This document shows positions 12,720-54,018 of a DNA stretch of 64,000 bases, one piece after another. The notes beneath the pieces are model-generated. The model had not been told where the DNA came from. It searched no databases and saw only the letters and a list, made by a program, of their open reading frames with translations. The translations under genes and the position numbers were made by a program. The number at the start of each line of letters is the position of its first letter. Within the stretch, counting starts at the first letter, position 1. This stretch comes from an uncultured Chloroflexia bacterium (GTDB lineage: Bacteria > Chloroflexota > Limnocylindria > QHBO01), in NCBI GenBank assembly GCA_963753125.1, contig CAVWAU010000002.1, positions 7,199-71,198 on the forward strand. Direction: 5' to 3'.

Positions 12720-12755
12720 GACGACACAGCGCACTCTTCGAGGGCGCCGCACCTG

Positions 12756-28991: not shown

Positions 28992-29965
28992 CACGCGCCG
29001 ATCTTCGTCCAGTCCTCGCCGCGGCGGGCGGCGGCGAGGGCGGCGCGTGCCTGCGCACGGTCCGCATCGGTCTGTGGCCAGACGGGACGGAACATGTACC
29101 ACTGCCCGGGGTCATCGGCGATCACCCCGCCGAGCGCATCGGCCACCTCCTGCGTGGCTCGGTAGATCTCCGCCGGCTCGGTGCTCGTGCAGGTCACGAA
29201 TGGCAGTCCGCGAGCCTCGAAGCGATCGTCGCGCTCGCGACGGCACCAGACCGGCAGGAGCGGCGCCCCCGTCTTGGCGGACAGCGTGGCTGGCCCGATC
29301 GGAAACGTGGTCGCCTCGCCGCACAGCTCGACCGGAACGTCACCGCGGCGGTAGCCGCCGTCACAGAAGAGCACGACGTTCCCGTTGTCGCGCAGCACCC
29401 GGAAGAGCCCGCGCAGGTTGCGCCAGCCGATGACGAGGATGTCCTGCTTTGCCCGAGCGGCCGACAGGTGATCGAAGAGGCGCCCGTAGGTCGTGTCGTC
29501 GGCGACGACGTGCATCGCGGTACCGCGCAGCTTCAGCCCAGGCCCGATCATGTCCATCCCGCCGACGTGGATGGTGCAGACCAGGACCCCCTTTCCCTGC
29601 GCGCGCGCCGCGTCGAGGACCTCGATGTTCTCGATGTGGACGAGGTCGGCCGCCGCGGCGGGCGACAGCTCGCCGATGCGCATCATGTCGACGAGGTACT
29701 TGGCGTAGTTGCGGAAGGCGCGGCGGGCGGCGGACCTCACGCGGCGATGATCGGGGTCGAGGCCCATCGGGTGCGCCAGGTTCTCGTGGATGACCTGTCG
29801 CTTCGGGCCGGCAAGGTCGTAGGCGAGGTTACCGACAGCGGCTGCCACGGGCATGACGGCCCGCCGCGGCACCGCGTTGATCACTCGCTCGGCCGCCAGG
29901 TAGAGCCAATAGGTCAGCAGCTCCCGCTTGCGCTCGGTCGGCGCACCATCCCGAAGGACAAACAT
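28991..29965 (-). CDS. PatA-like lysophospholipid/PIM acyltransferase 2
   Basis: AFRNYAKY; HVGGMD (HX4D); FPIGPATLS; PGQWYMFRPVWP. Confidence 0.82.
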   Translation of the reverse strand: MFVLRDGAPTERKRELLTYWLYLAAERVINAVPRRAVMPVAAAVGNLAYDLAGPKRQVIHENLAHPMGLDPDHRRVRSAARRAFRNYAKYLVDMMRIGELSPAAAADLVHIENIEVLDAARAQGKGVLVCTIHVGGMDMIGPGLKLRGTAMHVVADDTTYGRLFDHLSAARAKQDILVIGWRNLRGLFRVLRDNGNVVLFCDGGYRRGDVPVELCGEATTFPIGPATLSAKTGAPLLPVWCRRERDDRFEARGLPFVTCTSTEPAEIYRATQEVADALGGVIADDPGQWYMFRPVWPQTDADRAQARAALAAARRGEDWTKIGA

Positions 29966-29999
29966 CTCCGCGGAAGTATCCGCGATCCGGTGTGCCTGC

Positions 30000-31226
30000 C
30001 TACGCTACCTCGGCGGCCGCGGCCCGGGCCTTGACCTTGCGGTTCGGCGGCGCGACCTTGCGGGCCTTGCGCGGCGCGAGCTTCTCGGTGCCGTCCAGCG
30101 TCTCGTTGTCGTCACCGCGGATGAAGTCCTCGACCCGATTGTGCGCGATGTCGTCGTGGATCTGGATCGGCGGCGACTTCATGAAGTACGAGCTCGGTGC
30201 CACGAGCGTGCCGGCCAGGCCGCGGTCAAGGCCGAGCTTCGCGCAACGGATGGCATCGGTGATGACGCCCGCCGAGTTCGGCGAGTCCCAGACCTCGAGC
30301 TTGAGCTCCAGGTTGAGCGGGACGTCGCCGTACGTGGTGCCTTCCATCCGGATATGGCACCACTTGCGGTCCTTGAGCCACGGCACGTAGTCGGATGGTC
30401 CGACGTGGATGTCGTCGTCGGCGATCTCGTAGTCGATCATCGAGGTCACGGCGTTCGTCTTGCTGATCTTCTTGGACTCGAGGCGCTCGCGCTCGAGCAT
30501 GTTCAGGAAGTCGGTGTTGCCCCCGAAGTTGAGCTGGTAGGTCCGGTCGATCTTGACGCCGCGGTCCATGAAGAGACGGGTCAGCACGCGATGCGTGATC
30601 GTGGCCCCCAGCTGGCTCTTGATGTCGTCGCCGATGATCGGCAGCCCGGCCTTCGCGAAGCGCCGCTGCCAGTAGGGCTCGCGGCCGATGAAGACCGGGA
30701 TCGCGTTGACGAAGGCGACTCCGGCATGGATCGCCTGCTCCGCGTACCACTTGGTGGCCTGCTCGGAGCCGACCGGCAGGTAGCTGACCATGACGTCGAC
30801 CTCGCGATCCTTCAGGATCTTGACGATGTCGGCGGTTGGCCCGGGCGCCTTCGTGATGATCTCGGAGAGGTACTTGCCGAGGCCGTCGTGAGTCATGCCT
30901 CGCTCCACCGGCACGTTGAGCTCGGGCACCGGGGCGAAGGTGAACGTGTTGTTCGGCTCGGTGAAGATCGCCTCGGAGAGGTCCTTCCCGACCTTGTTGC
31001 GGTCGACGTCGAAGGCGGCCACGAACTCGATGTCGCGGACGTGGTAGCCGCCCAGGTTGACGTGCATCAGGCCCGGAATGAAGTCACCGTCCCTGGCATC
31101 GGCGTAGTGGTAGCGACCCTGGACGAGGCTGCTCGCGCAGTTCCCGACGCCCACGATGGCGACACGGACCTTGCCGTCGCTGGACCGATGGCCGTTGGTG
31201 GCGGCCTTTCCGTTCTTCGAAGCCAC
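30000..31226 (-). CDS. ino1: myo-Inositol-1-phosphate synthase
   Basis: [12 protein letters not shown]; SYLPVGS; [15 protein letters not shown]; [14 protein letters not shown]; WDSPNSAG. Confidence 0.97.
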
Positions 31227-31232
31227 GATGCG

Positions 31233-38494: not shown

Positions 38495-39958
38495 TCAGAA
38501 GAGGCTCGCCGCAGACACCTCGAGCAGGCCGAGGATGGCGCCCGGGAAGAGCCCGAGGATCACGACGCCAGCCACCGAGAGCGCGAGGGCCAGCGAGCCG
38601 AACGGATGGGTGTCGATGGGCGCGGGATCGGGCTCGGGGTCGCGCATGTACATGTAGACGATGACGCGCAGGTAGTAGAAGGCGGCCATCGCCGCGTTGA
38701 GCGCGATGATCACCGCCAGCCAGGCCAGGTCGGCGTCGACCGTGGCCAGCAGCACGTACAGCTTGGCGAAGAAGCCGACCGTCGGCGGGATGCCGGTCAG
38801 GCTGAGCATCAGGATGGCCATGGCGGCGGCACGGCCGGGGCGCGCGAGGCGAGGCCGGCGAACGAGTTCAGCCCGCCGAAGCGGCGCGTGTCGCGCTGGA
38901 GCATGCCGACCACCGCGAAGGCCGCGATGTTCATGACCGCGTAGCCGAGGACGTAGAAGAGCACCGACTCGATGCCCTGCGCCGCGGCCTCGGGAGTCGG
39001 TCGCGTTCGCGAACGCGGCCAGCCCGGCCATGATGTAGCCGGTGTGGGCGATGCTCGAGTAGGCGAGCATCCGCTTCACGTTGGTCTGGGTCAGGGCGAC
39101 CACGTTGCCGACCGTCATGGTCAGCACGGTCAGGACCAGGAAGATGCCGAGCCAATCGGCGCGCAGCGGCTCGAGCGCCTCGGCGAAGACGCGGATCAGC
39201 AGCGCGAAGGCGCCGAGCTTGGGGCCGACCGACAGGAAGCCGGTGATCGGCGTCGGCGCGCCCTGGTAGGCGTCCGGCGTCCAGTAGTGGAACGGCACCG
39301 CCGCGATCTTGAACGCGGCGCCGACGGTCAGGAAGCCGATCGCCACCAGCAGCGCGCCGCTCATCCGGCCCTCGACCGACGCGGCGATCTCGGCGATGTT
39401 GGTCGTGCCGGTCAGCCCGTAGATCCAGCTGATGCCGAACAGCAGGATGGCGCGGACGCGAAGCTGCCGAGCAGGAAGTACTTCAGGCCGCCCTCGTTGC
39501 TGTACCGATCGGTCTTGTGCAGGCCGGTCAGCAGGTACGCGGGCATCACCATCAGCTCGAGGCCGAGGAACAGGGTGATCAGGTCGCTGCTCGAGGCCAG
39601 CACGCACATGCCCAGCAGCGCGCTGACCAGGATCATGTTGAACTCGCCCAGCGGGATGCGGCGCGCGAGCAGGTACGACGGCGCGAACAGCGCCGAGAAG
39701 ATGCCGATCACGATCGTGGCGCCCTTGAAGAAGACGGACAGGTCGTCGACCACGTAGAAGCCGGCGTAGACCGTCTCGTTGATGCCCCAGACCAGCACGC
39801 AGGCGGCACCGGCCAGGATCAGCCCGGCCACGGTCAGCGGCGTGAGCAGCCACTTGTTGTCGCGCGACAGGAACAGGTCGACGGTGATGATCGACCAGCA
39901 CCAGCGCGACGAGCATCAGCTCCGGCAGGAGCGTGACGAGGTCGTCGACGTAGTTCAT
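38495..39958 (-). CDS. nuoN: NADH-quinone oxidoreductase subunit N (frameshifted)
   Basis: SNEGGLKYF, FKIAAVPFHYWTPDAYQGAPTP, KRMLAYSSIAHTGY. Confidence 0.95.
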   Translation of the reverse strand: MNYVDDLVTLLPELMLVALVLVDHHRRPVPVARQQVAAHAADRGRADPGRCRLRAGLGHQRDGLRRLLRGRRPVRLLQGRHDRDRHLLGAVRAVVPARAPHPAGRVQHDPGQRAAGHVRAGLEQRPDHPVPRPRADGDARVPADRPAQDRSVQQRGRPEVLPARQLRVRAILLFGISWIYGLTGTTNIAEIAASVEGRMSGALLVAIGFLTVGAAFKIAAVPFHYWTPDAYQGAPTPITGFLSVGPKLGAFALLIRVFAEALEPLRADWLGIFLVLTVLTMTVGNVVALTQTNVKRMLAYSSIAHTGYIMAGLAAFANATDSRGRGAGHRVGALLRPRLRGHEHRGLRGGRHAPARHAPLRRAELVRRPRLARPGRAAAMAILMLSLTGIPPTVGFFAKLYVLLATVDADLAWLAVIIALNAAMAAFYYLRVIVYMYMRDPEPDPAPIDTHPFGSLALALSVAGVVILGLFPGAILGLLEVSAASLF

Positions 39959-39968
39959 CGGTCCACCC

Positions 39969-41478
39969 TCACCACAGCGGCCCGAAGCCGGTCAGGCCGG
40001 CGCCGTTGACGGCCTCGATGATCCGGTCGACCGGCGCGGCGATCACCTCCAGCACCGGTCCGGGGTACACGCCGAGCGCCACCACCAGCACGATGAGCGG
40101 CGCCAGCGCCAGCCACTCGTTGCGGTTCATGTCGCGCAGGCGCGGCCCAGGAGCGGCGCATCCAGTCGGACGGCACCGTGAAGAAGACGCGCTGGAACAT
40201 CCACAGCATGTAGACCGCGCTGATGATGACGACGAGCATGGCCGCCGCCGCCACCCAGCCGTTGGAGCTGGAAGGCGCCGAGCACGACCAGGAACTCGCC
40301 GATGAAGCCGGAGAGGCCCGGCAGGCCGATGCTGGCGAAGGTGAACAGCCCGAAGATGGCCGCGTAGCGCGGCACGCGGGCGTTGAGGCCGCCCATGTGC
40401 GCGATCAGCCGGTCGTGGGTCTGCTCGTAGATGACGCCGACCAGCAGGAACAGCGCGCCGGTGGTGATGCCGTGGCTGACCATCTGGAAGATCGGCGCCC
40501 TGCAGGCCCTGCTCGTTGAACACGAACGCGCCGAGCATGACGAAGCCCATGTGGCTGACGCTCGAGTAGGCGATCAGCTTCTTGAGGTCGGGCTGCACCA
40601 TGCTGACCAGCGCCGCCGTACAGGATGGCGACGATCGCCAGGCCGATGATCGATCGGCGCGAAGCTGACGGCCGCATCGGGCAGCAGCGGCAGGCTGTAG
40701 CGCAGGAAGCCGTAGCCGCCGAGCTTCAGCATGACGCCGGCCAGGATGATGGAGCCGGCGGTGGGCGCCTCGACGTGCGCGTCGGGCAGCCAGGTGTGGA
40801 ACGGCCACATCGGCACCTTGATGGCGAAGGCCAGGAAGAAGGCGATGAAGGCGAGCGCCTGGAGCGTGTCGGCGTAGGCGAAGCCGCGCAGGGCCTCGTA
40901 GCTGAACGTGAACGGGTTGCCGGCCGCCGCGTGCGCGATGGCCACCGCCAGGATGGCGACCAGCATGAGCAGCGAGCCGACCAGCGTGTAGAGCACGAAC
41001 TTGACGGTGGCGTAGATCGCGGCGCGGGCCGCCCCAGACGCCGATGATCACGTACATCGGGAAGAGGCTGATCTCCCAGAAGACGTAGAACAGGAACAGG
41101 TCGAGGGCGACGAACACGCCGAGCATGCCGGTCATGAGCACCAGCATCGCGATGTAGTACTCCTTGACCCGCTTCTGGATCGGCTCCCAGGAGTAGAAGA
41201 TGCTGACCACGCTCAGGATCGTGGTCAGCAGCACGAGCACCACCGACAGCCCGTCGACGCCGAGCGTGTAGCGCATCCCGAAGGCCTCGATCCACGGCAC
41301 GTCCTCGCGGAACTGGAACTCGCTGCCGGCCGGGTCGTAGCCGAGCAGGGTCAGGAGAAGCCGAAGCTGGCCAGCGCGGCGAGCAGCGCGATCCAGCGGA
41401 TGGCCCGATGGCGATGCCGGGCACGAACAGCAGCAGCAGCACGCCGAGCAGCGGGGTGAAGACGATGAGGCTGAGCAT
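39969..41478 (-). CDS. nuoM: NADH-quinone oxidoreductase subunit M (frameshifted)
   Basis: [50 protein letters not shown]. Confidence 0.95.
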
Positions 41479-41518
41479 GGCTGCCCAGGCTCGCGTGCGA
41501 ATATACGCTCGTCCACCA

Positions 41519-43729
41519 TCACCGCACCACCGTCGCGTAGGCGATCAGCACGAGCGCCAGCCCGCCGGCGATGCCGAGGCCGTAGTTCTGGACCCGGCCG
41601 GTCTGGACCTTGCGCAGGCCGCCGCCGATCGTGCGCGCCAGCCAGCCGGCGCCGTTCACCGCGCCGTCGATGACCCTGGCGTCGAACCACCACAGCGCGT
41701 TGCTCAGCAGCACGCCGCCGCGCGCGAAGACGAGCTGGTAGATGTCGTCGACGTAGTACTTGTTCACGCTGGCGCGATACATGCCCGGGCCCAGGCCGAA
41801 CGGGATGCGCTCCACGAATCGCGCGGCCGCTCAGGCCGCTCCACGTAGAAGCGATAGCGCCAGCCAGACCCCGCGCGGCCACCACCGCGCCGACCATCAG
41901 CAGCAGGCCGCCGAGCCCGAACAGCTCGAAGCCGTGGTGCTCGCCCGCGGCGATCGACCCGGGCAGGACGCCGGCGTGCGCCTCCTCGGCGCCGTGGAAG
42001 ACCTCCTCCAGCCAGCCGTGGATCACGCCGCCCTCCGGCGGGATGCCGAGGAGCAGGCCGGCGAGGACGGTCGGCACCGCCAGGATGACGAGCGGCGCGA
42101 CCATGGTCGGCGCGCTCTCGTGGACGTGGTCCCACACCGCCTTCGGCCCGCGCCACTCGCCCCAGAAGGTCATGAAGATCATGCGGAACGTGTAGAAGGC
42201 GGTCATGAAGGCCACGATCACGCCGACCAGGTAGAAGACGAGGTAGCCGCGGTTGAACGCCTCGGCCAGGATCTCGTCCTTGCTGAAGAAGCCGGCGAAG
42301 ATCGGGATGCCGGCCAGCGCCAGCGAGCCGATCACCATGGTGATGTAGGTCCAGCGCATCCTCGCGCGCAGGTTGCCCATGAAGCGCATGTCCTGCTCGC
42401 CGCCGGCGCCGTGGATGACCGAGCCCGGAGCCCATGAACAGCAGGCCCTTGAAGAAGCCGTGGCTCACGAGGTGGAAGATGGCGGCCACCCACGCGCCGA
42501 TGCCGAGCGCGAAGAACATGTACGCCAGCTGGCTGACGGTCGAGTAGGCGAGCACCTTCTTGATGTCGTTCTGGGTCAGCGCGATGGCCGCGGCGAGGAT
42601 GGCGGTGAAGACGCCGATGCTGGCCACCACCAACATGGCGGTCGGGGCCTCGGCGAAGATCGGGTTGGCGCGGGCGACCAGGTAGACGCCGGCGTTGACC
42701 ATGGTCGCGGCGTGGATCAGCGCGCTGACCGGGGTCGGGCCCTCCATCGCGTCGGGCAGCCAGACGTGGAGCGGGAACTGCGCGCTCTTGCCGACGGCGC
42801 CGGCGAACAGCAGCAGGGCGATGATGGTGATCGGTGCCCTCGTCGAGCGTCCCGATCCGCTCGAAGACCTCGTGGAAGCTCAGCGTCCCGAGGTTGACCC
42901 AGATCATCATGATCCCGAGGCCGAACCCGAAGTCGCCGACGCGGTTGACGACGAACGCCTTCTTGGCGGCCCCGGCGGCCGAGGGCTTCTTGTACCAGAA
43001 GCCGATGAGCGCGTAGCTGCACAGGCCGACCGCCTCCCAGCCGACGTACAGCATCACGAAGTTGTCGCCCAGGATCAGCAGCAGCATGCTGAACATGAAC
43101 AGGTTCAGGTAGGCGAAGAAGCGCCAGAACCCGCGGTCGCCGTCCATGTAGCCGATCGAGTAGACGTGGACCAGGAAGCCGACGGTGCTGACCACCAGCA
43201 GGAGCATCGCGGTCAGCGCGTCGACGAGGAAGCTGATCTCGATCTGGAAGTCGCCCGACGCGATCCACTCGTAGATGCGTGACCTCGTACTCGTTGCCGC
43301 CGAAGATGACGTTGGCGAACACGATCATGCTCAGGACCCAGCATCGATGCCCACCAGGCCGGTCGGCACGATCCACGACCGGTAGCGCGGCCGCTCCGCC
43401 CCCGGCGTCACGTGCCCGGCCTGGCCGAGCCCGTCGTTGAACTCGGGCGGGATCACGCCATCGGCGCCGTCGGCGTTGGCGAGGTCGTCGGCGTGGCCGG
43501 CGTGCGGGCTGGTTGCGGCCTGCTCCTCCTCGGTGGGGATGGTGCGGAGCTCCGAGTCGTCGACGTCGTGGTGCGCGTCGTCGTCCGTGTCGTCGTGCGT
43601 CGTCGTGCTCGTCGTGCGTCGTCGCCGTGGCCGTGGAGCGGGCACGCGGTCGAGCCGCGGGCCGGCGAGGACGGCGAACAGGAACCCGGCCAGGGGCAGC
43701 GCCGGAATGAGGACGATCAGCAGCTCCAT
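41519..43729 (-). CDS. nuoL: NADH-quinone oxidoreductase subunit L (frameshifted; His/Asp-rich insertion)
   Basis: [45 protein letters not shown]. Confidence 0.95.
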
Positions 43730-43739
43730 CGGTCCTCGC

Positions 43740-44045
43740 CTACTCCTTCAGGTCGGCGTACTGGTCGACCTCGGCCGTCTGACGGGTGCGGATGATGGCG
43801 ATGACGAGGGCCAGGCCCACGGTCACCTCGGCGGCGGCGACGGCCATGATCATCAGCGCGAAGACGGCGCCGGTGTTCGCCTCGGGCGGCAGGTAGGCGT
43901 TGAAGGCGACCAGGCTCAGGTTCACCGCGTTGAACATGAGCTCGATGCTGATGAGCATCAGGATCGCGTTGCGCCGGGCCATGAAGCCGAAGGCGCCGAT
44001 GCCGAAGAGCATGGCGGAGACGAGCAGGTAGCCCTCGAGGCCCAT
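43740..44045 (-). CDS. nuoK: NADH-quinone oxidoreductase subunit K
   Basis: RRNAILMLISIELMFNAVN; AVAAAEVTVGLA. Confidence 0.96.
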   Translation of the reverse strand: MGLEGYLLVSAMLFGIGAFGFMARRNAILMLISIELMFNAVNLSLVAFNAYLPPEANTGAVFALMIMAVAAAEVTVGLALVIAIIRTRQTAEVDQYADLKE

Positions 44046-44048
44046 CGG

Positions 44049-44558
44049 TCAGTTCGCCCGCTCGTCCTCTTCCGGCCGGCGGGCCAGGAAGATGGCGCCG
44101 ATGATGGCGACCAGGATCAGCAGGCTGATGATCTCGAACGGCAGCGCGTAGTCGGTGAAGAGCGCGGTCGCGATGGCATCGACCGCCGCGGCGACGGCCT
44201 CGGCGGCGACGCCCCAGTCGGTCTGGACGACGGCCCAGCCGACCAGGCCGACGATGGCCAGCGCGACGACGGCGGCGATCGGCAGCTGCCGATGGAACGG
44301 CGCCGGCAGGTTCGCGTCGCCGGCCTGGGTGAGCATGATCGCGAACAGGATCAGGACGCTGATGGCGCCGAGGTAGATGAGGACCTGGGCGGCGGCGACG
44401 ATCGGCGCCCCGAGCAGCGCGTACATGCCGGCCAGCGAGCCGAAGCAGATCATCATCGCCACGGCCGAGTGGATGATGTTGCGCAGCGTGACGACCGCGA
44501 TCCCGGCCCCTACCACGCCGACGGCGAGCAGGAAGAAGAGGACGCTGGAGATGTCCAG
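44049..44558 (-). CDS. nuoJ: NADH-quinone oxidoreductase subunit J (apparent CTG start)
   Basis: QVLIYLGAISVLILFAIML; YALPFEIISLLILVAIIGA. Confidence 0.93.
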   Translation of the reverse strand: MDISSVLFFLLAVGVVGAGIAVVTLRNIIHSAVAMMICFGSLAGMYALLGAPIVAAAQVLIYLGAISVLILFAIMLTQAGDANLPAPFHRQLPIAAVVALAIVGLVGWAVVQTDWGVAAEAVAAAVDAIATALFTDYALPFEIISLLILVAIIGAIFLARRPEEDERAN

Positions 44559-44730
44559 GGTCGGTGCTCCCGTTCGATGAGGTTCGAGCGCTCGATGGCC
44601 CGCTCGGGGCCGCGACTCGATTCTAGCGTCACACGGAACCCATTGCGCGCTCGCGCGATCAGCCCGTACGTTCGCCGCATCGCCGCGGCCCCGGCGGTGG
44701 AGTGAGGCATTAATGGAGGTCGAGATCACG

Positions 44731-45099
44731 ATGACGAGACGGACCATCTCGGTGCTCGCTGCGCCTGGCGCTGACGCTGGCCGCGTGCGGCGGCGGTGGG
44801 GGCGGAGGCGGCGGCGACGGGGGCCGAGGATCTCCGACGACGGCCACCGTCGAGTCCGGCGCCGAGCGCGTCGCCCAGCCGCTCGCCCGGGTCGCTATCG
44901 CCTCACCATCACCGAGGACTGCGACGACTACACCGTCACGATCACCCAGGAGGGCGGTGACTTCACCTACGAGATCTCGAACTCGCCGATCCGGATCGTG
45001 TTCGTGAACGACGTGCCGGGCGGCAACTTCCTCATCGAGCAGACGAACCCCGACTGCACCGACTGGACCCTCGACCTCGCCCGCGTGAGCGGCGGCTGA
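44731..45099 (+). CDS. Small lipoprotein, antisense to the nuo operon (frameshifted)
   Basis: GGAGG RBS; lipobox LALTLAAC (Cys codon 44786) followed by a Gly-rich linker; beta-rich domain with two Cys. Confidence 0.6.
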   Translation: MTRRTISVLAAPGADAGRVRRRWGRRRRRRGPRISDDGHRRVRRRARRPAARPGRYRLTITEDCDDYTVTITQEGGDFTYEISNSPIRIVFVNDVPGGNFLIEQTNPDCTDWTLDLARVSGG

Positions 45100-45420
45100 C
45101 GCGCGTTCGGCTTCGCGAACCGTCCAAATTCACACCAGGTGACCGTTACGCGCGTTCGGCCGTCGCGAACCGTCCGAATTCACACCAGGTGACCGCCAGA
45201 GCCCGCATCTGACCGTTCGCGGCCCGTTCGGCTGCGTAACGCTCACTCCACGTGAATTCGGACCGTTCGAGCCGAGCGCGCGAACTGCCAAATGCTCACC
45301 AGGTGAGCGTCACGCCGCGACCGTCGCGTCCGCCAGTGATACTGGTGAGCGCCACACGGCGAATCTGACCGTTCGCGGCCGCGTCGGGCCGCTAGCGCTC
45401 GACGTGAGCATCTGACAACT
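45099..45420. repeat. REP/BIME-like cluster of ~48-bp units in direct and inverted orientation
   Basis: Near-identical copies at 45099-45145 and 45148-45195; inverted copy about 45234-45269; degenerate direct copy about 45277-45315; exact ATCTGACCGTTCGCGGCC at 45207 and 45363. Confidence 0.8.
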
Positions 45421-45464
45421 CACGGCCGGCGTGGCACCAAGTCGCCGCCGCCGGCGGCATCGGT

Positions 45465-47858
45465 CTAGCGGGTGGGTCGCTCCCGGTCGGACATCTCGAG
45501 GATGTCGAGCATCGGCAGGTCGCGCTGGTACTCGCTGAACTCGAACTCGGGGCCGCAGCGCAGGGCGTCGTACGGGCAGGCATCGGCGCAGATGCCGCAG
45601 AAGATGCAGCGGACTGACGTCGAGCTGGTAGGTCTCGAGGATGCGCGGCCGCGGCATGAGCGCGCCGACCGGGCAGGTCTCGGCGCATCGGCCGCAGGAG
45701 ACGCACGGCGTCTCGTTGAGGCTGACGTAGTCGGCGGTGGTGACGAGCGAGTCGAAGCCCTTGCCGATGAAGTCGTAGCAGCCGGCGCCGACGATCTCCT
45801 TGCAGACCTGGGCGCATCGGCCGCAGTCGATGCAGCGGCGAGTAGTCGCGCAGGATGAACGAGTGGGTCTCGTCGCGGCCGTAGCCGTGGTTGACGCCGA
45901 CGTACGGGTTGTCCTGGATCGAGCGCTCGTCGATCGCCATGTTGAGCGTCGTCTCGTACTCGATCGCCGCCTCGCGCAGGTCGCAGTGGCCGATCGCCTC
46001 GCACGTGCACTGGAGGCAGCGGCCGGCCTCGGCCATGGCCTGGTCGCCGGTGTAGCCGAACTCGTACTCGTCGAAGTTCGTGCGCCGCGCCTCCGGGCCC
46101 TGCTTGCCCATGATCGCCTTCGGCTCCTTCACGTCGTCGGTGAAGGGCACGATGGTCAGGAAGTTCGGCTGCGGCTCGGTGACGATGCGCCGCACCTGCG
46201 GGTCGTCGAGGTCGTGGCCGCGCAGCCAGTAGTCCATCGCGTAGCGACGCGCGCCGCGCCTCGCCGATGGCCTCGACCACGGTCGCGGCGCCGGTCCGCA
46301 CGTCGCCCGAGGCGAAGATCTTCGGGACGTCGGTGCGGAAGATGTGCTCCTCGGCCTCGAGCGTGCCGCGGCGGCTGACCTCGAGCCCGGCGCGGATCTC
46401 CTCCGGCTCGGAGTCGACCCACGACAGCTCCGGGCCCTGGCCGATGGCGCCGAGCACGGTGTCGCACTCGACGATGAACTCGGTGCCGGGCATCGGCTCC
46501 GGGCGGCGGCGGCCCTGCTCGTCCGGCTCGCCGAGCTTCATGCGCTGGAACTCGACGCCGGTGACCTTGTTGTTGTCATCGGTCACGATCCGGGTCGGCG
46601 CGGCCTGGAAGATGACGCGCGCGCCCTCCTCGATCGCCTCGTGCACCTCGTCGGCGGCCGGCATGTCCTTGAGGTCGCGGCGGTAGACGAGCGTCACCTC
46701 GGCAGCGCCCTGGCGCACGCTGGTCCGGGTGCAGTCGATGGCGGTGAATCCGCCGCCGATGACGACCACCCGGGCGCCCTTCAGGCGCGGGACCGGGATG
46801 CCGCGCGTCGAGTTGTAGAGGTTCTCGAGCGCGTTGACGGTGCCATCGGCGTCCTCGCCCTCGATGCCGAGCTCGTTCGGCTTGTAGCAGCCGATGCCGA
46901 CGTAGATGGCGTCGTAGTCGTCGATGATGTCGCCGATGTGGAAGTCGCGCCCGAGGCGCATGTTCGGCTTGAAGGTCGCGCCGAGCTCCCAGACGTGGTT
47001 GAGCTCGCGGTCCATCCAGCCCTTCGGCAGGCGGTACTGCGGGATGCCGTAGCGCAGCATGCCGCCCTGCTCCGGATCGGCCTCGAAGACGTCGCAGTGG
47101 TGTCCGCGCAGCTGGAGGTAGTAGGCGGCGGTCATGCCGGCCGGGCCCGGAGCCGATGATCGCCACGCGGCGTCCGGTGTCGGGCTCCTTCGGCCACGGG
47201 ATCGGCGCCGGGGCGTCGACCTCCAGCACCCGGTCGGCGCAGTAGCGATGCGAGTCGCGGATGGCGATGGCGGTGTCGACCTCCTCGCGCCGGCAGTGCG
47301 TCTCGCACGGCGCCGGGCAGACGCGGCCGAGGATGGCCGGGAACGGCAGCGAGCGCTTCAGGATGCGCGTCGCCTCCTCCCAGTTGCCGAGCGTGTTCTG
47401 CTTCAGGTAGCCCGGGATGTCGACGCGGGTCGGGCACTTGAACTGGCAGGGCGGCAGGCAGTACGCGTCGTGGTCGCTGAAGATGAGCTCGAGCACCATG
47501 CGGCGGTTCTCGATGACGCGATCGGAGTGGGTGGTGATGACCATCCCCTCGGCGATGTGCGGTCCCGCAGCTGATCGGCGTGTCGTCCGGCCCTCGACCT
47601 CGACCGCGCAGATGCGGCAGGCGCCGTACGGGGCCAGCTTCGGCTCGTAGCACAGCGTCGGGACCTCGATGCCGAGCACGCGGCAGGCCTGGAGGATCGT
47701 CTGCCCCTCCTCGACCTGGAGCTGCTGGCCGTTGATGGTGACGCCGATCTCGCGGGTGCCGGGCACCATCGGCCAGATCGGCGTGTAGTCGTCGACCCGC
47801 CCATTGCCGGGCGCCGTTGCCGTTGCCGGCCGTTGCCGTTCGTCGTTCCGAAGCCCAT
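45465..47858 (-). CDS. Fusion flavoprotein: NuoG-like N-terminal Fe-S domains + GltD/SfrB-type FAD/NADPH domain + 2x[4Fe-4S] + C-terminal half of NuoI (frameshifted)
   Basis: PTLC..GACRIC [2Fe-2S]; PPCQFKCP..GRVCPAPCE..C; IIGSGP.G; IGGGFTAID..YRR; CIDCGRC..C and CVSCGRC...CP; ETYQLD..RCIFCGICADACPYDAL..GPEFEFS. Confidence 0.85.
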
Positions 47859-47870
47859 CGGCTCCGTATC

Positions 47871-49256
47871 CTAGCTGAGGCTGAGTGGCCGGCCGCCGGA
47901 TCGACTCCGGGCAAGCGGCTGGAGGAGGGGTGGCCACGCCGTCGGTGCGGCAGGCGCCGGCCAGGCACACGCCGCGCTCGGCGTGCGCCCGGTACTCGTC
48001 ATCGAAGCGGTCGAGCGTCGTCAGGATCGGGCCCGAGGCGAGCCGCTCCAGCTTGCAGAGGGCGGTGTCGCTCACCTTGCGCGACAGCTCGCGCAGGAGC
48101 TCGAAGTCGTTCGGTCGCGGCGTGGCGGCCAGGATCCGGTCGAGCGCCTCGACGAGCCGCTTGCGTGCCGATGCGGCACGGGACCGCCTTGCCGCACGCC
48201 TCGCGCGCGCTGAAGTCGATGAAGAAGCGCGCGCGTGGCGACCATGCAGGTGCGCTGAATCGGTGACGAGCACCGAGCCGGAGCCGATGATCGCGCCGGC
48301 CGCCTCCATCGCGTCGTAGTCGTACGCCAGGTCCAGCGATCCGGCGTCGATCGCGCCGCCGCCCGGGCCGCCGACGAAGAGCGCCTTGGTCGTGCCGGTG
48401 CCGCCGCCGGCCATGCCGAGCAGGTCGAGCAGCGAGCGTGCCGAACGGGACCTCGAGCAGGCCCGGCTCGCCGACGCGGCCCATGACCGTGACGAGCTTC
48501 GTGCCGCGGTTGCCCTCGCTGCCGACCGACGCGAAGGCGTCCGGCGAGTGGGCCATGATCCACGCCACGTGCGCCAGCGTCTCGGCGTTCTGGACCACCG
48601 TCGGCGCGCCCCACAGGCCCCTTGTCGGCCGGGTACGGCGGACGGATCAGCGGCATGCCGCGATCGCCGGAGAGCGCGCTGATGAGCGCGGTCTCTTCGC
48701 CGGCGACGTAGGCGCCGGAGCCCTCCCAGACGCTCAGCTGCACGCTCGTATCGGTCCCGAGGACGAGGTAGCCGGCCGAGGTGCGCCTCGGTCGCCTCGC
48801 GGATCGCGGTCTGGAGCCGCTCGATGGCCGCCGTCCAGTCGCGACGCACCGCGATGATCGCCTCGCTGGCGCCGACCGCGTAGGCGGCGATGAGCATGCC
48901 CTCGACCACGAGGTGCGGGTTGCCCTCGGCCAGCGCGCGATCGCCGAGCGCGCTCGGGTCGGCGCGCCATCAGGTTGGCGACCACGATCTTGCGGTCGGC
49001 CTCCGTTCCGCGGGCCACGCGCCACTTGTCGGCGGTCGGGAAGCCGGAGCCGCCACGACCACGGAGGCCGGCGGCCTCGATCTCGCCGATCATCCCCTCC
49101 GGCGACAGCTTCGTGATGGCGCGCTCGAGGCCGGCGTAGCCGCCGTGGTCGCGGTAGCTGGCCAGGCTCGATCGGGTCGACCCGGCCGATGTCGGTCAGG
49201 ATGCGGTGCTCGCCGCCGGCGAGGATGCGGATCTGCGGCGACAGGGCGCTCGCCAT
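47871..49256 (-). CDS. nuoF: NuoF/HydB-like flavoprotein with divergent motifs (frameshifted)
   Basis: GLRGRGGSGFPT..KW; GAYVAGEETAL; VQNAETLA; GGPGGG; EACGKAVPCRIG; C-terminal H....C..G.C. Confidence 0.85.
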
Positions 49257-49257
49257 G

Positions 49258-50091
49258 TCAGCCAGCGCTCCCGGCGGTGGCGGCCGCGCGCCGCTCGCCG
49301 ACGATGTGGAGGGCCTTGTCCTCGGTCAGCGGGCCGTAGACCAGGGTGTCGATCCGGATCGCCGGGCTGATCGCGCCGGCGCCGACGTCCGTGCGCGTCT
49401 CGAGGCTGAAGCGGCCGTCGGCCGTCGTCTCGCCGGCCCGGATGCCGAGCTCTCGCTCGAGCGCGCGCGAGCAGGCGGTCGCCGCCGGCGAACCGGCACG
49501 AGGCGCAGTCGCAGACGGTGACGACGTGGCCCTCGGCGGGGAGCAGCCGGAAGCCGCCAAGGCCGGCGGCGCCGAAGACCTGCGCCCAATGGATGGTCAT
49601 CCGGTCGCTGACCCGACGCAGCGCGCGTTCGGGCAGGTAGCCGTAGCGTCGCCTCGATGGGACGGAAGATGGCGACGAGCGCCTCCGGGCGCCCCGCCGA
49701 AGCCGTCGATGACCTCGTCGACGAAGGCGTGTCGATCTCCTCGTCCCAGCGCGCCGGGTTGCGCATCGGCCTGGCCGGCACGCCCGCGCGACGGTAGGCG
49801 TTCGCGTCCTGGCGCTCGTCGTAGATCTCCGGCATGCCGTAGCGGATGCGGTTGCCCTCGCGAGTCGAAGCCGCTCATGTCGATCGCCTCGACCGGGCAG
49901 ACCTGCGCGCACTGGAAGCACACCTCGCACTTGTGCTCGCCGAACGGGTCGTAGATCAGGTCGAGGCGGCCGCGCCATCGGTCGGGGATGTCGGGGCGCT
50001 GCTCGGGGTACTGGCGGGTCACCTTCGGCGAGAAGAAGTTGCGGAAGGTCGTCGCCATGCCCTTGGCAATGCCGGAGCCGGGAATCGCCAT
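49258..50091 (-). CDS. Probable fusion of NuoI N-terminal half and degenerate NuoE (frameshifted)
   Basis: TRQYPE..P.RWRG...GEHKCEVCFQCAQVCPVEAI (one motif only); then YGYLPE, VCDCASC, GETTADGRFSLE. Confidence 0.75.
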
Positions 50092-50105
50092 CAGTGCGCC
50101 TCGCA

Positions 50106-51119
50106 TCACAGGTCGAGCACCACGACCGCGATGGCGGTGACGAACAGGTTGACCAGCGCGAGCGGCAGCAGAACCTTCCAGGCGACGCCCATCAGCTGGT
50201 CGACGCGCACGCGCGGCAGCGTCGCCCGCAGCCAGACGGCGACGAACACGAAGAGGTAGGTCTTCAGGAAGAACCAGAAGGCTCCGTAGAGCGTGCCGCC
50301 GAAGCCGTCCAGCTGGGCGGGGAACGGCCACGGCGCCAGCCAGCCGCCGAAGAAGAGGCTGATCAGGATGCCGCTCATGATGAAGAGCGCCACGTACTCG
50401 GCGAAGAAGAAGAAGCCGAAGCGCATGCCCGAGTACTCGGTGAACGGTCCGGCAACCAGCTCCGAGTCGGCCTCGACCATGTCGAACGGCGTGCGGTTCA
50501 CCTCGGCCAGCGAGGCGACGTAGAAGATGGCGACGCCGACCGGCTGCGCAGACGAAGAGCCACCCGTTCTCGCGCTGCCACTGCGATCACCTCGCTGAAG
50601 TTGAGCGTGCCGGCCAGCACGACGGCGCCGACGATCGAGAGGGTCAGCGGGATCTCGTAGCTCACCATCTGGGCGGCGCTGCGCAGCCCGCCCAGCAGCG
50701 AGTACTTGTTGTAGCTCGCCCAGCCGGCGACCAGCAGGCCGACCACCGAGAGCCCGAGCACCGCGAAGAAGTAGACGATGCCGATGTTCATGTTGCTGGC
50801 GATGGCGCCCGGCGCGAACGGGATGACCAGCATGCTCATGGCGGCCGCCATGTAGACCATCCAGGGCGCCAGGGTGAAGGTCCCCCGATCGGCCTGATCC
50901 GGGACGGTGTCCTCCTTGGCGAGCACCTTGAAGCCGTGGATCGTGCTCTGGAACATGCCGCTCGGCCCGATCCGGTTCGGGCCGAGGCGCAGGTTCATGC
51001 CCGCGATCACCTTCAGCTCCATCTGGATGATGACGAACGCGGTCGGCACGGTCAGCAGCAGCAGGAGCGTCGTGGCCAGCACGAAGCGCCCGATGCCGAG
51101 GAGCAGCTCCCAAGTCCAT
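50106..51119 (-). CDS. nuoH: NADH-quinone oxidoreductase subunit H (frameshifted)
   Basis: RLGPNRIGP; NKYSLLGGLRSAAQMVSYE; NRTPFDMVEADSELVAG..TEYSG. Confidence 0.95.
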   Translation of the reverse strand: MDLGAAPRHRALRAGHDAPAAADRADRVRHHPDGAEGDRGHEPAPRPEPDRAERHVPEHDPRLQGARQGGHRPGSGRSGDLHPGALDGLHGGRHEHAGHPVRAGRHRQQHEHRHRLLLRGARALGGRPAGRRLGELQQVLAAGRAAQRRPDGELRDPADPLDRRRRRAGRHAQLQRGDRSGSARTGGSSSAQPVGVAIFYVASLAEVNRTPFDMVEADSELVAGPFTEYSGMRFGFFFFAEYVALFIMSGILISLFFGGWLAPWPFPAQLDGFGGTLYGAFWFFLKTYLFVFVAVWLRATLPRVRVDQLMGVAWKVLLPLALVNLFVTAIAVVVLDL

Positions 51120-51122
51120 CGG

Positions 51123-52407
51123 CTACTTGTCCACGCCACCCATGACCGGGTCGAAGCTCGCCATGACCGCCATCGTATCGGCCACGAGGCGGCCCGGCAT
51201 CAGCTTCGGGAGCGCCTGCAGGCTGATGAAGCTCGGGTCGCGCATCCGGAACCGATACGGGTTCGGGTCCGCCGTCGCTGATGGCGTACACGCTGTAGAG
51301 GCCGCGCGGCGACTCGACCGCGCCGTACGCGCGGCCCGGCTTCGGCCGGATGATGCCCGGCACCTGCGCCTGGACCGCCCCGTGCGGCATCTTGTCGATG
51401 ATCTGGTCGATCAGGTGGATGCTCTGCTTGATCTCGGCGATGCGCTGGAGGTAGCGCGAGTACGAGTCGCCGCCCTGCTGGGTGATGATGTCGAACTCGA
51501 GCTCGTTGTAGATCGAGTACGGGTGCGCCTTGCGCACGTCGAACGGCACGCCCGACGCCCGCAGGTTCGGTCCCGTCACGCCGAGGCTGATGGCCTCCTG
51601 GCCGGTCAGGGTGCCCATGTTGATGGTCCGAGAGCGGAAGATCTCGTTGTCGGTGATCATCGCCTCGTTCATCTCGATGTTCTTGAGCACCTTGCCGCGC
51701 CAGGTGCCGAGCCGGCTCAGGAACTCGTCGTTCGTGTCGAAGTTCACGCCGCCGACGCGGAAGAAGTTGAAGAGCATCCGCTGCCCGCTGATCGCGCTCA
51801 GCAGGTCGACGATCTCGTCCCGGTTGATGAACGCGTACAGGATCGGCGTCAGGCCGCCCATGTCGAGCGCCAGGAACCCCATCATCAGGCCGTGGCTGAA
51901 GACGCGGTTCAGCTCGACCACCAGCGCACGGATGTACTCGGCGCGCTTCGGCGCCTTGATCCCGTACAGCTTCTCGAACGCGATCGCCGGCGCGTGCTCG
52001 TTGTGCATCGTCGAGATGTAGTCCATCGGGTCGACGTAGGTGAGCACCGTGGTGTAGGTGGCGTTCTCGCAGAGCTTCTCGATGCCGCGGTGCAGGTAGC
52101 CGAGCACCGGGTCGATGTCGATGATGACCTCGCCGCGGACCTTCACCACCAGCCGCATCACGCCGTGCGTCGAGGGATGCTGCGGGCCCATGTTGATGAG
52201 CATCTCGCCCTCTTCGAGGGTGTAGATGTCCCGCTCGCGATCGGTCACCGGCGGTCGGTCCGGGATCCCGACCTGGTCGAAGCCGGCGTACTCGCCGCGC
52301 TCCGTTCGGACCGGCACCAGGCCGGCCACGGCGCGCAGCCGCGCCTCCTCGGCCCGGTCGAGCTCGATCGGATCGGGGATCCGGGTCTCCGGGTCGATCG
52401 TCGTCAT
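51123..52407 (-). CDS. nuoD: NADH-quinone oxidoreductase subunit D (frameshift near 3' end)
   Basis: NMGPQHPSTHGV; GYLHRGIEK; ESPRG; DP.MGGVDK*. Confidence 0.96.
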
Positions 52408-53011
52408 CCGGTCGGCTCGCGTCGCCCCGTCCTCGTCGGCGCCGTCGCTCGATCGCGCGGGACGTCCAGCGCGTCGCGGAAGCGCGAGAGGTCCCACGTC
52501 TCGGGGCGCTCGAGCGGATTGACTCCGGCGGCCGGCGAGTCGGCCGCGTCGTCCGGCAGGATGAAGTCCTTCCGCTGCGGGAACGAGCGGTAGTCGGGGC
52601 TCATGTAGATCCGGCGCAGGTCGCGGTTGCCGTCGAACACGATGCCCATCATGTCGTACATCTCGCGCTCGTGGAACATCGCTCCCTCCCAGAGGTCGGT
52701 GATGCTCGCGATGCGCGGCCTGGCGCGGTCCACGTGCGCGCGGATGCGGAGCCAGCCGGGATGCTTCCAGCTGAACAGGTGATAGACGACCTCGAAGCGC
52801 TCGCCGACGCCGTAGTCGACGGCGGCGGCATCGGCGAGCATGAAGAACTCGAACGCCTCGTCGTCGCGCAGGGTGCGCAGCACGTCGTGGGCGCGGGCGG
52901 CGTCGACCTGGACCTCGACGGTGTCCTCGTCGGTCCACAGGTCACGGAGGTCGGGGCCGAAGCGCTCGCCAGCAGGCGGACGAGCGCACCGGCGGCGACG
53001 GGTGCGGTCAG
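52404..53011 (-). CDS. nuoC: NADH-quinone oxidoreductase subunit C (start uncertain, possibly CTG)
   Basis: [12 protein letters not shown]; [17 protein letters not shown]; P.RKDF. Confidence 0.92.
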
Positions 53012-53662
53012 CGCACGTCTCCTTCCCAGCGCGTGCGCTGGGGACCCCGGTCGACGTAGGTCTGCCACTGGCCGCGGCGCTGCTTGACCAGCTCGTGGAG
53101 CTTCATCATCCCGTAGATGAGCCCCTCGGGGCGCGGCGGGCAGCCGGGCACGTAGACGTCGACCGGCATGACGCGATCCACGCCCTGGACCACGCTGTAG
53201 GAGCGCTTGAAACGGCCGCCGGACGTGGTGCAGGTGCCCATGGCGACGCACCACTTCGGCTCCGGCATCTGCTCCCAGAGACGGACGAGCGGTCCGGCCA
53301 TCTTGGTGGTCAGCGTCCCCGCCACGATCAGCACGTCCGCCTGGCGCGGGCTGGCGCGGAACGGGAACATGCCGAATCGGTCGATGTCGTTGACGCTGGT
53401 GGCGGTGCTCATCATCTCGATGGCGCAGCAGCTCAGGCCCGAGAGCAGCGGCCACAGCGAGTTGGCCCGAATCAGGTCGAGCAGGTAATCGGCCTTGGTC
53501 GGGATCACCTCGAGCAGGCCGTGGAAGCCGCCCTGCGGATGCTCCTCCATGCCGAACGGCTGCAGCAGCGCGTCGTTGCCCGCCTGGTCGGGAATGATGA
53601 TCGGGCCGTCGCCCGTCGCCGGCGTCGGTCTCGAGGGAGGTGGTCGGTCGATCTACTGCCAT
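53008..53662 (-). CDS. nuoB: NADH-quinone oxidoreductase subunit B
   Basis: [10 protein letters not shown]; RASPRQAD; MPEPKW; [14 protein letters not shown]. Confidence 0.96.
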
Positions 53663-54018
53663 TTCAGGTCACCCTTCTTCCAGGCGTACAGCTCGCCGAA
53701 CATCAGGATCGCAAGGAAGATGCCGATCAGGATGATCCCCTGCCACTCGAGGGTCCGCACCGTGACCGCCCACAGGTAGACGAAGATGATCTCGACGTCG
53801 AAGGCCACGAAGAGCAGGGCGTAGAGGTAGAAGGCCAGACCGAATCGGCTCCACGTGTCGCCGATGGTGTCGACGCCGGACTCGTACGGCAGGCCCTTCT
53901 GGGGCCGTCGCCGCCGATGCGTGATCAGCCAGCTGAACAGGATCGTGCCGAAGACGAAGGTCGTCGCGGCGAACGCGAATCCGATGACGTAGAGCAGTCC
54001 GGTGTGATCCATCTCCAC
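53653..54018 (-). CDS. nuoA: NADH-quinone oxidoreductase subunit A
   Basis: PYESG; FYLYALLFVAFDVE; YAWKKG.L.W. Confidence 0.96.
   Translation of the reverse strand: MEMDHTGLLYVIGFAFAATTFVFGTILFSWLITHRRRRPQKGLPYESGVDTIGDTWSRFGLAFYLYALLFVAFDVEIIFVYLWAVTVRTLEWQGIILIGIFLAILMFGELYAWKKGDLKWQ

Follow-up and report, generated by a model that had tools for sequence, protein, structure and literature searches.

We analysed a window of 64,000 nucleotides (nt), meaning the whole stretch of DNA presented above, from a metagenome bin of Candidatus Limnocylindria (G000:C2:7199-71198; bin G000 comprises 1.9 Mb in 6 contigs, with 70% G+C, and is rated 62% complete). Our subject is a minus-strand gene at 45465-47858, whose product we term G'. 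We find it probable that G' serves as the 'G' subunit in an atypical respiratory complex I found in Candidatus Limnocylindria (phylum Chloroflexota), in which a stripped Nfn/Stn-type cassette lies inside nuoI and supplies an NADPH inlet together with a possible NADH inlet, and that the copy in the window is intact. Complex I ranks among the best-studied enzymes and, to our knowledge, an NADH-oxidising N-module and a single-chain NuoI are treated as invariant in bacteria with the 14-subunit form of the enzyme.

G' and the two halves of NuoI

Using an intact orthologue for domain searches (L013; G012:C223, open reading frame (ORF) 11791-14253, from a many-contig bin), we found that G' resembles StnC and NfnA along most of its length. 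L013 has 820 residues, or 795 from its MGFGTT start, and intact orthologues range from 795 to 820 residues. Its residues 61-785 matched the PDB chains 9bov_A (E=4e-168), StnC (8oh5_C, 5e-150) and NfnA (9n5u_A, 1e-136), and NuoG and HydA chains matched it over the first 100 residues only. G' carries the hallmark order of StnC/NfnA: a [2Fe-2S] domain, an inserted GltD-like domain with two [4Fe-4S] motifs and sites for flavin adenine dinucleotide (FAD) and NADPH, an N5-like motif and ferredoxin-type motifs. Consistent with this, the NuoG model TIGR01973 matched at positions 1-95 and 97-203 only, on either side of ~480 residues of GltD-like sequence; its score of 102.6 bits, against a cut-off of 470, is not that of a full-length NuoG. 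The N5-type motif is divided between SDH..YC..PPC...CP before the flavoprotein domain and RCLQCTCEAIGHC after it, and the NADPH-type motif in the window copy reads GGGFTAIDCTRTSVRQGAAEVTLVYRR.

No Pfam family of the molybdopterin or FdhF-like type was found in the orthologue, and its alignments to chains of 1172-1178 residues end near residue 700 of those chains. The solved relatives (963-1178 residues) run on into an FdhF-like domain, whereas G' stops ~95 residues past the last aligned motif. Among 14 G' sequences from at least 8 families, the invariant positions include the four [2Fe-2S] cysteines, H129/C133/C137/C141-P, C180/C184/C188, the FAD glycines, GGG..D..RTS.R.G...YRR, C613/C616/C618/C624 and three CxxCxxCxxxC(P) motifs, one of them belonging to the NuoI C-half described below. 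A protein-atlas search with G' returned only generic 'FAD-dependent oxidoreductase' clusters without structures, the top ones from Chloroflexota.

An earlier note on this DNA, made from its letters, had described most of these features. The N1b ([2Fe-2S]) ligands, an N5 motif interrupted by a GltD domain, the FAD site (IIGSGP.AG) with its NADPH-type motif, the lack of the large molybdopterin-like NuoG domain and the gene ends (ATG 47858, stop 45465-45467) were all recovered here, on the minus strand. Its single open frame did not hold, as the gene is readable only through 7 frame switches. The note had overlooked these frameshifts, and also the NuoI C-half at the end of G' and the NuoI N-half on the NuoE-like gene.

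The tail of G' (YQFDVSRCIFCGICADACP...EFEFSEYQRD) was matched by NCBIfam NuoI models at positions 71-112 of 121, with TIGR01971 positions 80-112 at G000:C2:52717-52815 (window 45519-45617), and aligned with the second-motif region of solved NuoI/NDUFS8 chains. Two genes upstream, a 276-residue protein starts as the NuoI N-half, through the first CxxCxxCxxxCP motif, and continues as a NuoE/HydC-like domain, here termed E'. TIGR01971 positions 1-63 fall at window 49870-50061 and positions 1-82 of alignment model A1 at window 49843-50091; overall, the N-half covers model positions 1-74 of 121, or residues 23-84 of E. coli NuoI. The two halves are thus complementary when set against solved NuoI. 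An intact NuoI, scored as TIGR01971 above its cut-off, was found in none of 5 genomes of the genus, model positions 1-74 and 71-112 lying instead on two genes ~4.2 kb apart. A structure prediction of the two halves (A1 1-95 and A2 730-795 with two 4Fe-4S clusters) scored 0.22 against a mark of 0.32, with controls not run, and speaks neither for nor against their binding.

The gene between E' and G' encodes a NuoF-like flavoprotein, F'. Its bit scores were highest with NfnB (420) and StnB (407), against 284 with T. thermophilus Nqo1, yet it covers only the core of NfnB/StnB (96-524 of 584) without their extra N- and C-terminal cluster domains. F' retains a CxxxxC pair ~20-30 residues from its end, and its identity within the genus is 79-87%. 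E' scored best with HydC, NfnC and StnA (5e-24 to 3e-21), compared with 3e-14 for NuoE; the second cysteine pair of its [2Fe-2S] site is replaced (DVGAGT rather than CLGAC), and its thioredoxin-like part is wholly missing in several families. With F' reduced to the core and E' devoid of the second cysteine pair, a bifurcating BfuB/BfuC core is not present. Judged by these similarities, the E-F-G module as a whole belongs with the transhydrogenases of the Nfn/Stn (Bfu) type. Where the earlier note spoke of Nso/Nfn-type complexes, the solved relatives bear the names Stn and NfnABC. The replacement of canonical NuoG put forward in the earlier note therefore stands as regards NuoG, but was drawn too small, since the exchanged unit is the entire module, placed inside nuoI.

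In the window, the gene order is nuoA-B-C-D-H-[I(N)::E']-F'-[G'::I(C)]-spacer-J-K-L-M-N, and the L013 locus reads nuoA, B, C, D, H, [NuoI-N::E'], F', [G'::NuoI-C], spacer, J, K, L, M. This arrangement, with M-/N-like genes after L, recurs in 6 of the 8 loci that we inspected in relatives, from three families of the class. The remaining two, from family f2, read B-D-[IE]-F'-G' followed by an NDUFAF7-type methyltransferase gene. In one such f2 locus (L019, G027:C8, 8862-10217, minus strand) a PF02636 methyltransferase gene directly follows nuoB-nuoD-[IE]-F'-G'; we take PF02636 to be the family to which NDUFAF7, an assembly factor of complex I, belongs. The E-F-G cassette thus sits after nuoH, inside nuoI, and not in the nuoD-nuoH interval as in canonical operons. 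NuoD is closest to that of M. smegmatis; MGPQHPSTHG and MDYLS, its His and Tyr motifs that we take to form the quinone site, are retained. The operon encodes a complex I: A, B, C, D, H, J, K, L, M and N stand together in it, and its NuoD has quinone-site motifs and not NiFe ligands.

Distribution, electron path and alternative readings

Each of four congeners (93-96% complete) carries one PF01512 (NuoF-type) and one PF00346 (NuoD) locus, both in this operon. Matches to the NuoG model in these four genomes fall only inside the G' gene, and none of the four has an intact NuoI. As a further NuoF or NuoD, an intact NuoI and a canonical NuoG are all missing from these genomes, the split-NuoI operon is the only complex I of the four congeners. 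A separate canonical nuoEFG, which the earlier note had named as the finding that would count against its proposal, is likewise missing from them.

Orthologues of G' with at least 86% identity were found in 22 of 24 congeners, the two without one being 63% and 68% complete, and orthologues with 52-61% identity in all 16 other class members; this tally includes an unpublished genome (G006), on which alone no claim rests. In an even draw of 301 Chloroflexota genomes, NuoI-N and E' matched in one frame in 34 of 34 Limnocylindria and in 31 genomes of five other families (the draw includes the unpublished G234, G078, G167, G295 and G201, none of which is among the matches). A relative is encoded by 534 of 599 pattern matches, and the record titles of the close relatives name Chloroflexota, mostly 'Candidatus Limnocylindria'. 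Three contigs with other labels (L035, L050 and L063; two Steroidobacteraceae and one Binatia) encode a fusion that is 76-84% identical to the query from Limnocylindria and are most likely mis-binned in public metagenome-assembled genomes (MAGs).

We examined five loci from five other Chloroflexota families (L105, L106, L108 and L109 from G144, G194, G101 and G161, and L107 from G218). All five have [NuoI-N::short E'], [G'::NuoI-C] and an intact N3 motif in F'; four are arranged as nuoB-[IE]-F'-G' and one as A-B-C-D-H-[IE]-F'-G'. In the four of these genomes checked (G101 was not among them), an intact NuoI lies beside NuoH elsewhere and there is a further NuoH, a pattern suggestive of a pair of complex I isoforms whose genes are dispersed. 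The Limnocylindria f2 genome G027 has one NuoH and the split NuoI only.

These observations are best explained by the following scheme, which we regard as probable. An ancestral operon of the 11-subunit type (A-B-C-D-H-I-J-K-L-M-N) would have gained a three-gene dehydrogenase cassette related to NfnABC/StnABC; we infer that the recruitment by this ancestor was a separate one because the cassette lies after nuoH and inside nuoI. On landing within nuoI, the cassette would have joined the N-half to the NuoE-like protein and put the C-half in place of the FdhF-like domain of the StnC-like protein. The two halves are predicted to rebuild the 2x[4Fe-4S] fold (N6a and N6b) on NuoB/NuoD, tethering the module to the membrane arm. 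Electrons from NADPH would enter at the FAD of the GltD-like domain and pass through its two [4Fe-4S] clusters and the N5-like cluster to N6a, N6b, N2 and (mena)quinone, with proton pumping. F' may offer a second inlet, for NADH, through N3, N1b and N4 to the same N5 junction. The proton pump may therefore burn NADPH as well as NADH, the use of NADPH being read from motifs.

In Stn, electrons travel from NADPH/FAD through C7, C6, C5, C4 and C3 to the flavin mononucleotide (FMN) of the B subunit, and C1 and C2 lie on a side branch, described by the authors as a non-functional remnant in the excerpts of PMC10482914 used here. The complex I counterpart of that branch would be the step from N5 to NuoI, and it is precisely to this end that the NuoI C-half is joined in G'. 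Because of this placement, the shortest wire would be NADPH-FAD-two GltD clusters-N5-like-N6a/N6b-N2-quinone. A B subunit without clusters B2-B5 does not bifurcate according to the criteria in the consulted parts of Schut et al. (PMC9304861), and since the bifurcation-specific Bfu clusters are gone, the Limnocylindria enzyme should operate without bifurcation.

Use of NADPH by G' is plausible. The pattern GGG..D..RTS.R.GA....YRR is identical to that of the NADPH-using StnC, and the YRR arginines presumably bind the 2'-phosphate. Of the NADPH-fed complex I suggested in the earlier note, the motif upholds NADPH as a possible inlet, but as one of two, the NuoF-like flavoprotein still being there. 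That note's further idea of a GltD module wired into a nuoA-N complex gains firmer backing than it had, as the halves of NuoI are covalently part of G' and E'.

On the wider claim we are tentative, with somewhat more doubt than belief: that Limnocylindria (and, in dispersed form, several other Chloroflexota families) gained the input module of their complex I separately from all other bacteria. The result would be a two-flavin pump in which NADPH (GltD-FAD) and NADH (F'-FMN) converge on N5/N6a, making it the first complex I to respire NADPH directly or, in reverse, to make NADPH from quinol and the proton-motive force (pmf), with the dead-end cluster branch of Stn as the main wire.

Several points weigh against our interpretation. 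We infer the nucleotide specificity of G' from the identity of its motif with those of StnC and GltD. The conserved F' could mean that NADH is the main or sole physiological donor, with the GltD site in another role; the competence of F' is itself uncertain in either direction, as the Asp of the NADE motif is missing in 14 of 14 sequences and the middle Cys of its N3 CxxCxxC motif is absent in 6 of 14 (present in 8), with Ala in the source family. PntB is present in 3 of the 4 near-complete congeners, so the cell need not use the enzyme for NADH/NADPH exchange; for the same reason, we rejected the enzyme as a necessary stand-in for the PntAB transhydrogenase. Moreover, G000 is 62% complete and mixes two species, so the absences reported here are those of the congeners. 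A motif census of 91 loci, dominated by the source's family and including truncated contigs, found the N3 motif in 81, without the middle Cys in 78, and the NuoI-C motif in 69.

It is unlikely, in our view, that the same enzyme works mainly in reverse, with quinol (from H2, CO or organic oxidation) and the pmf driving reduction of NADP+ (and/or NAD+) and the GltD domain serving as an NADPH outlet for biosynthesis. The architecture is symmetrical as to direction, the Stn/Nfn relatives are reversible in the portions of PMC10482914 that treat them, and MAGs of Ellin6529 (= Limnocylindria) carry genes that serve to oxidise H2 and CO aerobically, according to the excerpts of PMC6776052. This reading must nevertheless contend with the status of the operon as the sole complex I, which heterotrophic respiration also needs unless NDH-2 serves, and with the PntB of the congeners, which can make NADPH at the expense of the pmf. 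We similarly doubt that the GltD-like domain binds NADH, or is purely a structural element or relay, in what would be an ordinary NADH:quinone oxidoreductase with an exotic N-module. The YRR motif alone is an unsafe guide to nucleotide preference, and the FMN loop GLRGRGG.G and the GEE motif of F' are preserved in 14 of 14 sequences; set against this are the FAD and NADPH-type motifs, which are invariant in 14 sequences of distant families and match an NADPH-using enzyme, and the lost NADE and N3 residues of F'.

We consider it highly improbable that E', F' and G' assemble into a soluble Nfn/Stn-like transhydrogenase of their own that just happens to be encoded alongside an 11-subunit, ferredoxin-type complex I: the closest solved relatives are soluble and the module lies apart from the membrane-arm genes in some Chloroflexota families, but NuoI, which is indispensable, has its two halves covalently built into E' and G', with no intact NuoI in the Limnocylindria genomes checked (including G027), nuoB adjoins the module even in detached clusters, and neither the FdhF-like domain nor the extra clusters of BfuB nor the cluster ligands of BfuC are present.

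The window copy and its surroundings

Translated in the frame of ATG 47858, the gene contains 2 internal stops, and three-frame translation places the frame switches near 47820, 47587, 47562, 47145, 46248, 45841 and 45613; the fourth [2Fe-2S] cysteine is legible only within a 25-nt stretch of shifted frame (47562-47587). The upstream NuoF-like gene has at least 6 frame switches, and nuoD, nuoH, nuoL, nuoM and nuoN are broken too. Using blastn, we aligned window 35000-55913 with the relative G021, whose GltD part is 98% identical, in one alignment of 21,000 columns with 92.8% identity and 144 gap openings. The gaps are mostly single extra bases on the window side, at ~1 per 150 nt, and are spread over all nuo genes. 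Illumina contigs from 4 public runs (two DNA studies and one metatranscriptome study) omit or add letters at 45613, 46244, 47559, 47587 and 47830, that is, at or near 5 of the 7 switches, among the 12 of 36 entries listed (the places near 47145 and 45841 are not among them); the same contigs also differ, among the listed entries, at matching places of the NuoF-like gene.

With the indel codons skipped, the gene yields 790 codons without an in-frame stop, 94.4% amino acid identity to the intact orthologue and a ratio of non-synonymous to synonymous substitution rates (dN/dS) of 0.12. The values for five neighbouring nuo genes are 0.11-0.18, a range that also spans all six operon genes, and show purifying selection on the operon in the window. 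Because relatives and the Illumina contigs lack the frameshifts and dN/dS is 0.12, we read them as long-read assembly errors in a gene that is really intact, and the density of indels probably explains the 62% completeness rating of the bin. There is hardly any room for a decaying pseudogene with true frameshift mutations; the switches in this gene and its NuoF-like neighbour are what such decay would leave, but the indel density is equal across the nuo genes of the contig, the 790 codons are stop-free and under constraint, at or near five of the seven places, among those listed, short-read contigs from four runs are free of the indels, and this is the sole complex I operon of this type of organism. 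Selenocysteine or other recoding behind the in-frame stops was ruled out, since the breaks are frame switches caused by single-base indels absent in relatives.

The whole window (1-64000) is syntenic with G000:C6:50621-111760 at 75-87% nucleotide identity (12 alignments of at least 400 nt, 53,343 columns), and bin G000 therefore mixes two related species. Contig C6 carries a second copy of the entire operon, with a GltD part 93% identical and a single frame break, in F'; given the synteny of the whole window, we rejected this copy as a paralogue. Contigs from two metatranscriptome runs of one study span 30 of 30 bins of the stretch, which is a weak hint of expression, DNA carry-over or relatives' sequence being possible sources. 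None of the public sequencing runs holds at least half of the stretch's words (best 0.29).

The spacer between G' and nuoJ contains local direct repeats of 33 and 57 nt at 45101-45430 and a plus-strand ORF of 128 residues (44713-45099) without a Pfam match. The repeats were ruled out as a dispersed element, no other copy being found in the genome. In relatives, the spacer ranges from <100 nt to ~2.5 kb, and the small membrane or secreted ORFs within it are unrelated. An Rfam scan of the whole window at gathering thresholds gave 0 matches. Elsewhere in the window, dnaA (Bac_DnaA and Bac_DnaA_C; 3106-4365, plus strand) lies ~34 kb from the nuo operon, and the window may for this reason be near the replication origin. 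A protein O-mannosyltransferase-like gene (15657-17306, plus strand) and a myo-inositol-1-phosphate synthase gene beside a lipid-A-type acyltransferase gene (28994-31232, minus strand) bring to mind envelope chemistry of the phosphatidylinositol-mannoside type.

Table 1. Features of the nuo operon in the window (window positions) and Pfam domains of the intact G' orthologue L013 (residue numbers).
Feature	Position	Strand	Basis
nuoA	53656-54018	-	tblastn with L013 proteins; Pfam of L013 orthologues (likewise for nuoB, nuoC, nuoD and nuoH)
nuoB	53011-53652	-	tblastn with L013 proteins
nuoC	about 52408-53010	-	tblastn with L013 proteins
nuoD	51126-52407	-	tblastn with L013 proteins; quinone-site motifs
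nuoH	about 50106-51116	-	tblastn with L013 proteins
NuoI N-half (first CxxCxxCxxxCP motif) + NuoE/HydC-like domain (E')	49260-50097	-	TIGR01971, alignment model A1, orthologue
F', NuoF-like flavoprotein closest to NfnB/StnB, at least 6 frame switches	47870-49256	-	PDB matches 9bov_B 1.5e-124, 8oh5_B 1.4e-120, Nqo1 1.9e-83
G': StnC/NfnA-type [2Fe-2S] + GltD-like FAD/NADPH + ferredoxin-type + NuoI C-half	45465-47858	-	frames, orthologue L013 matches
G', N-terminal [2Fe-2S] (N1b/HydA-type) domain	47510-47748	-	Fer2_4 in orthologue; C69, C80, C83, C97 invariant in 14 sequences
G', N5-type motif part 1 (SDH..YC) into GltD-like domain with two [4Fe-4S] motifs	46248-47499	-	Fer4_20, Pyr_redox_2
G', FAD motif IIGSGP.AG of GltD-like domain	near 47120-47172	-	invariant among 14 sequences
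G', NADPH-type motif GGG..D..RTS.R.GA....YRR	about 46677-46769	-	invariant among 14 sequences
G', linker + N5-type motif part 2 (RCLQCTCEAIGHC) + two CxxCxxCxxxC(P) motifs, NuoG/HydA ferredoxin-like domain	45655-46247	-	TIGR01973 positions 97-203
G', NuoI C-half (YQLDVSRCIFCGICADACP...EFEFSEYQRD) fused at its end	45465-45654	-	TIGR01971, NCBIfam, solved NuoI/NDUFS8 alignment
Variable spacer between G' and nuoJ	44544-45464		direct repeats + small ORF
nuoJ	44049-44543	-	tblastn, Pfam
nuoK	43740-44045	-	tblastn, Pfam
nuoL	about 41519-43729	-	tblastn, Pfam
nuoM	about 40000-41510	-	tblastn, Pfam
nuoN	38495-39958	-	tblastn, Pfam
L013 Fer2_4	residues 60-136		Pfam
L013 first 17 positions of NuoG N5 motif family	residues 143-159		Pfam
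L013 Fer4_20	residues 159-237		Pfam
L013 Pyr_redox_2	residues 255-558		Pfam
L013 ferredoxin-type motifs	residues 692-790		Pfam

Significance and comparison with known systems

For this window, the outcome is that the gene is real and the assembly error-ridden. If our interpretation is true, soil bacteria of a dominant class depend for respiration on an enzyme that has a second inlet, of the NADPH type; evolution has brought the N-module to the membrane arm more than once; and a split 2x[4Fe-4S] subunit can act as a docking device. Many Chloroflexi have been scored as lacking complex I, with 13 of 14 subunits and no NuoG, in the sections of Spero et al. (2015, PMC4453560) that cover them; the G' module may be the missing NuoG-like piece, at least in Limnocylindria. 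A complex I variant with a split NuoI and a GltD-type module is new, in that no printed description of it was found. Full-text literature searches returned no account of a split NuoI, an NADPH complex I or a nuo operon with an Nfn-type module; clusters of relevance may be listed in the supplementary tables of Schut et al.

For each of the three cassette proteins, the best scores are with the electron-bifurcating transhydrogenases StnABC/NfnABC (Nfn-Bfu; Sporomusa ovata 8oh5; 9bov; 9n5u). StnC/NfnA and G' share the same order of [2Fe-2S] domain, GltD insertion, N5-like motif and two ferredoxin-type motifs over ~720 aligned residues. They part at the C-terminus, where the FdhF-like domain of Stn (~470 residues, a tetramer contact there according to the excerpts of PMC10482914) gives way to the NuoI C-half in G'. 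BfuB of Stn/Nfn has N- and C-terminal cluster domains, both of which F' lacks, and the [2Fe-2S] cluster of BfuC contrasts with an E' that has lost two ligands and gained the NuoI N-half. Stn/Nfn enzymes are of the soluble type, whereas the Limnocylindria enzyme, known here from its genes, would not be.

With the canonical 14-subunit complex I of T. thermophilus, E. coli and M. smegmatis, the operon shares A, B, C, D, H and J-N in one unit and the N-terminal cluster motifs of NuoG. It differs in having no molybdopterin-like NuoG domain, NuoI as two polypeptides, an extra FAD/NADPH site and no N1a ligands, and in placing E-F-G after nuoH, inside nuoI, rather than between nuoD and nuoH.

Two reported systems come closer in part. 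'Nuo-Bfu', which Schut et al. (2022, PMC9304861) predict for Deferribacteres, Proteobacteria, Planctomycetes and Nitrospirae, likewise has Bfu-type ABC genes in mid nuo cluster in place of NuoEFG, but with a full bifurcating BfuBC core; the passages of that paper on the system mention neither a GltD-type BfuA nor a split NuoI. In the Mbx-like operons discussed by Degli Esposti (2015, PMC4758237), as far as the sections drawn on here describe them, the position of NuoI within an Mbx-type, non-quinone complex is taken by a GltD-related flavoprotein. The Limnocylindria operon shares with these a GltD-type NAD(P)H site on a complex-I-like membrane module, but where they substitute NuoI, it keeps NuoI, in split form, together with the quinone site of NuoD.

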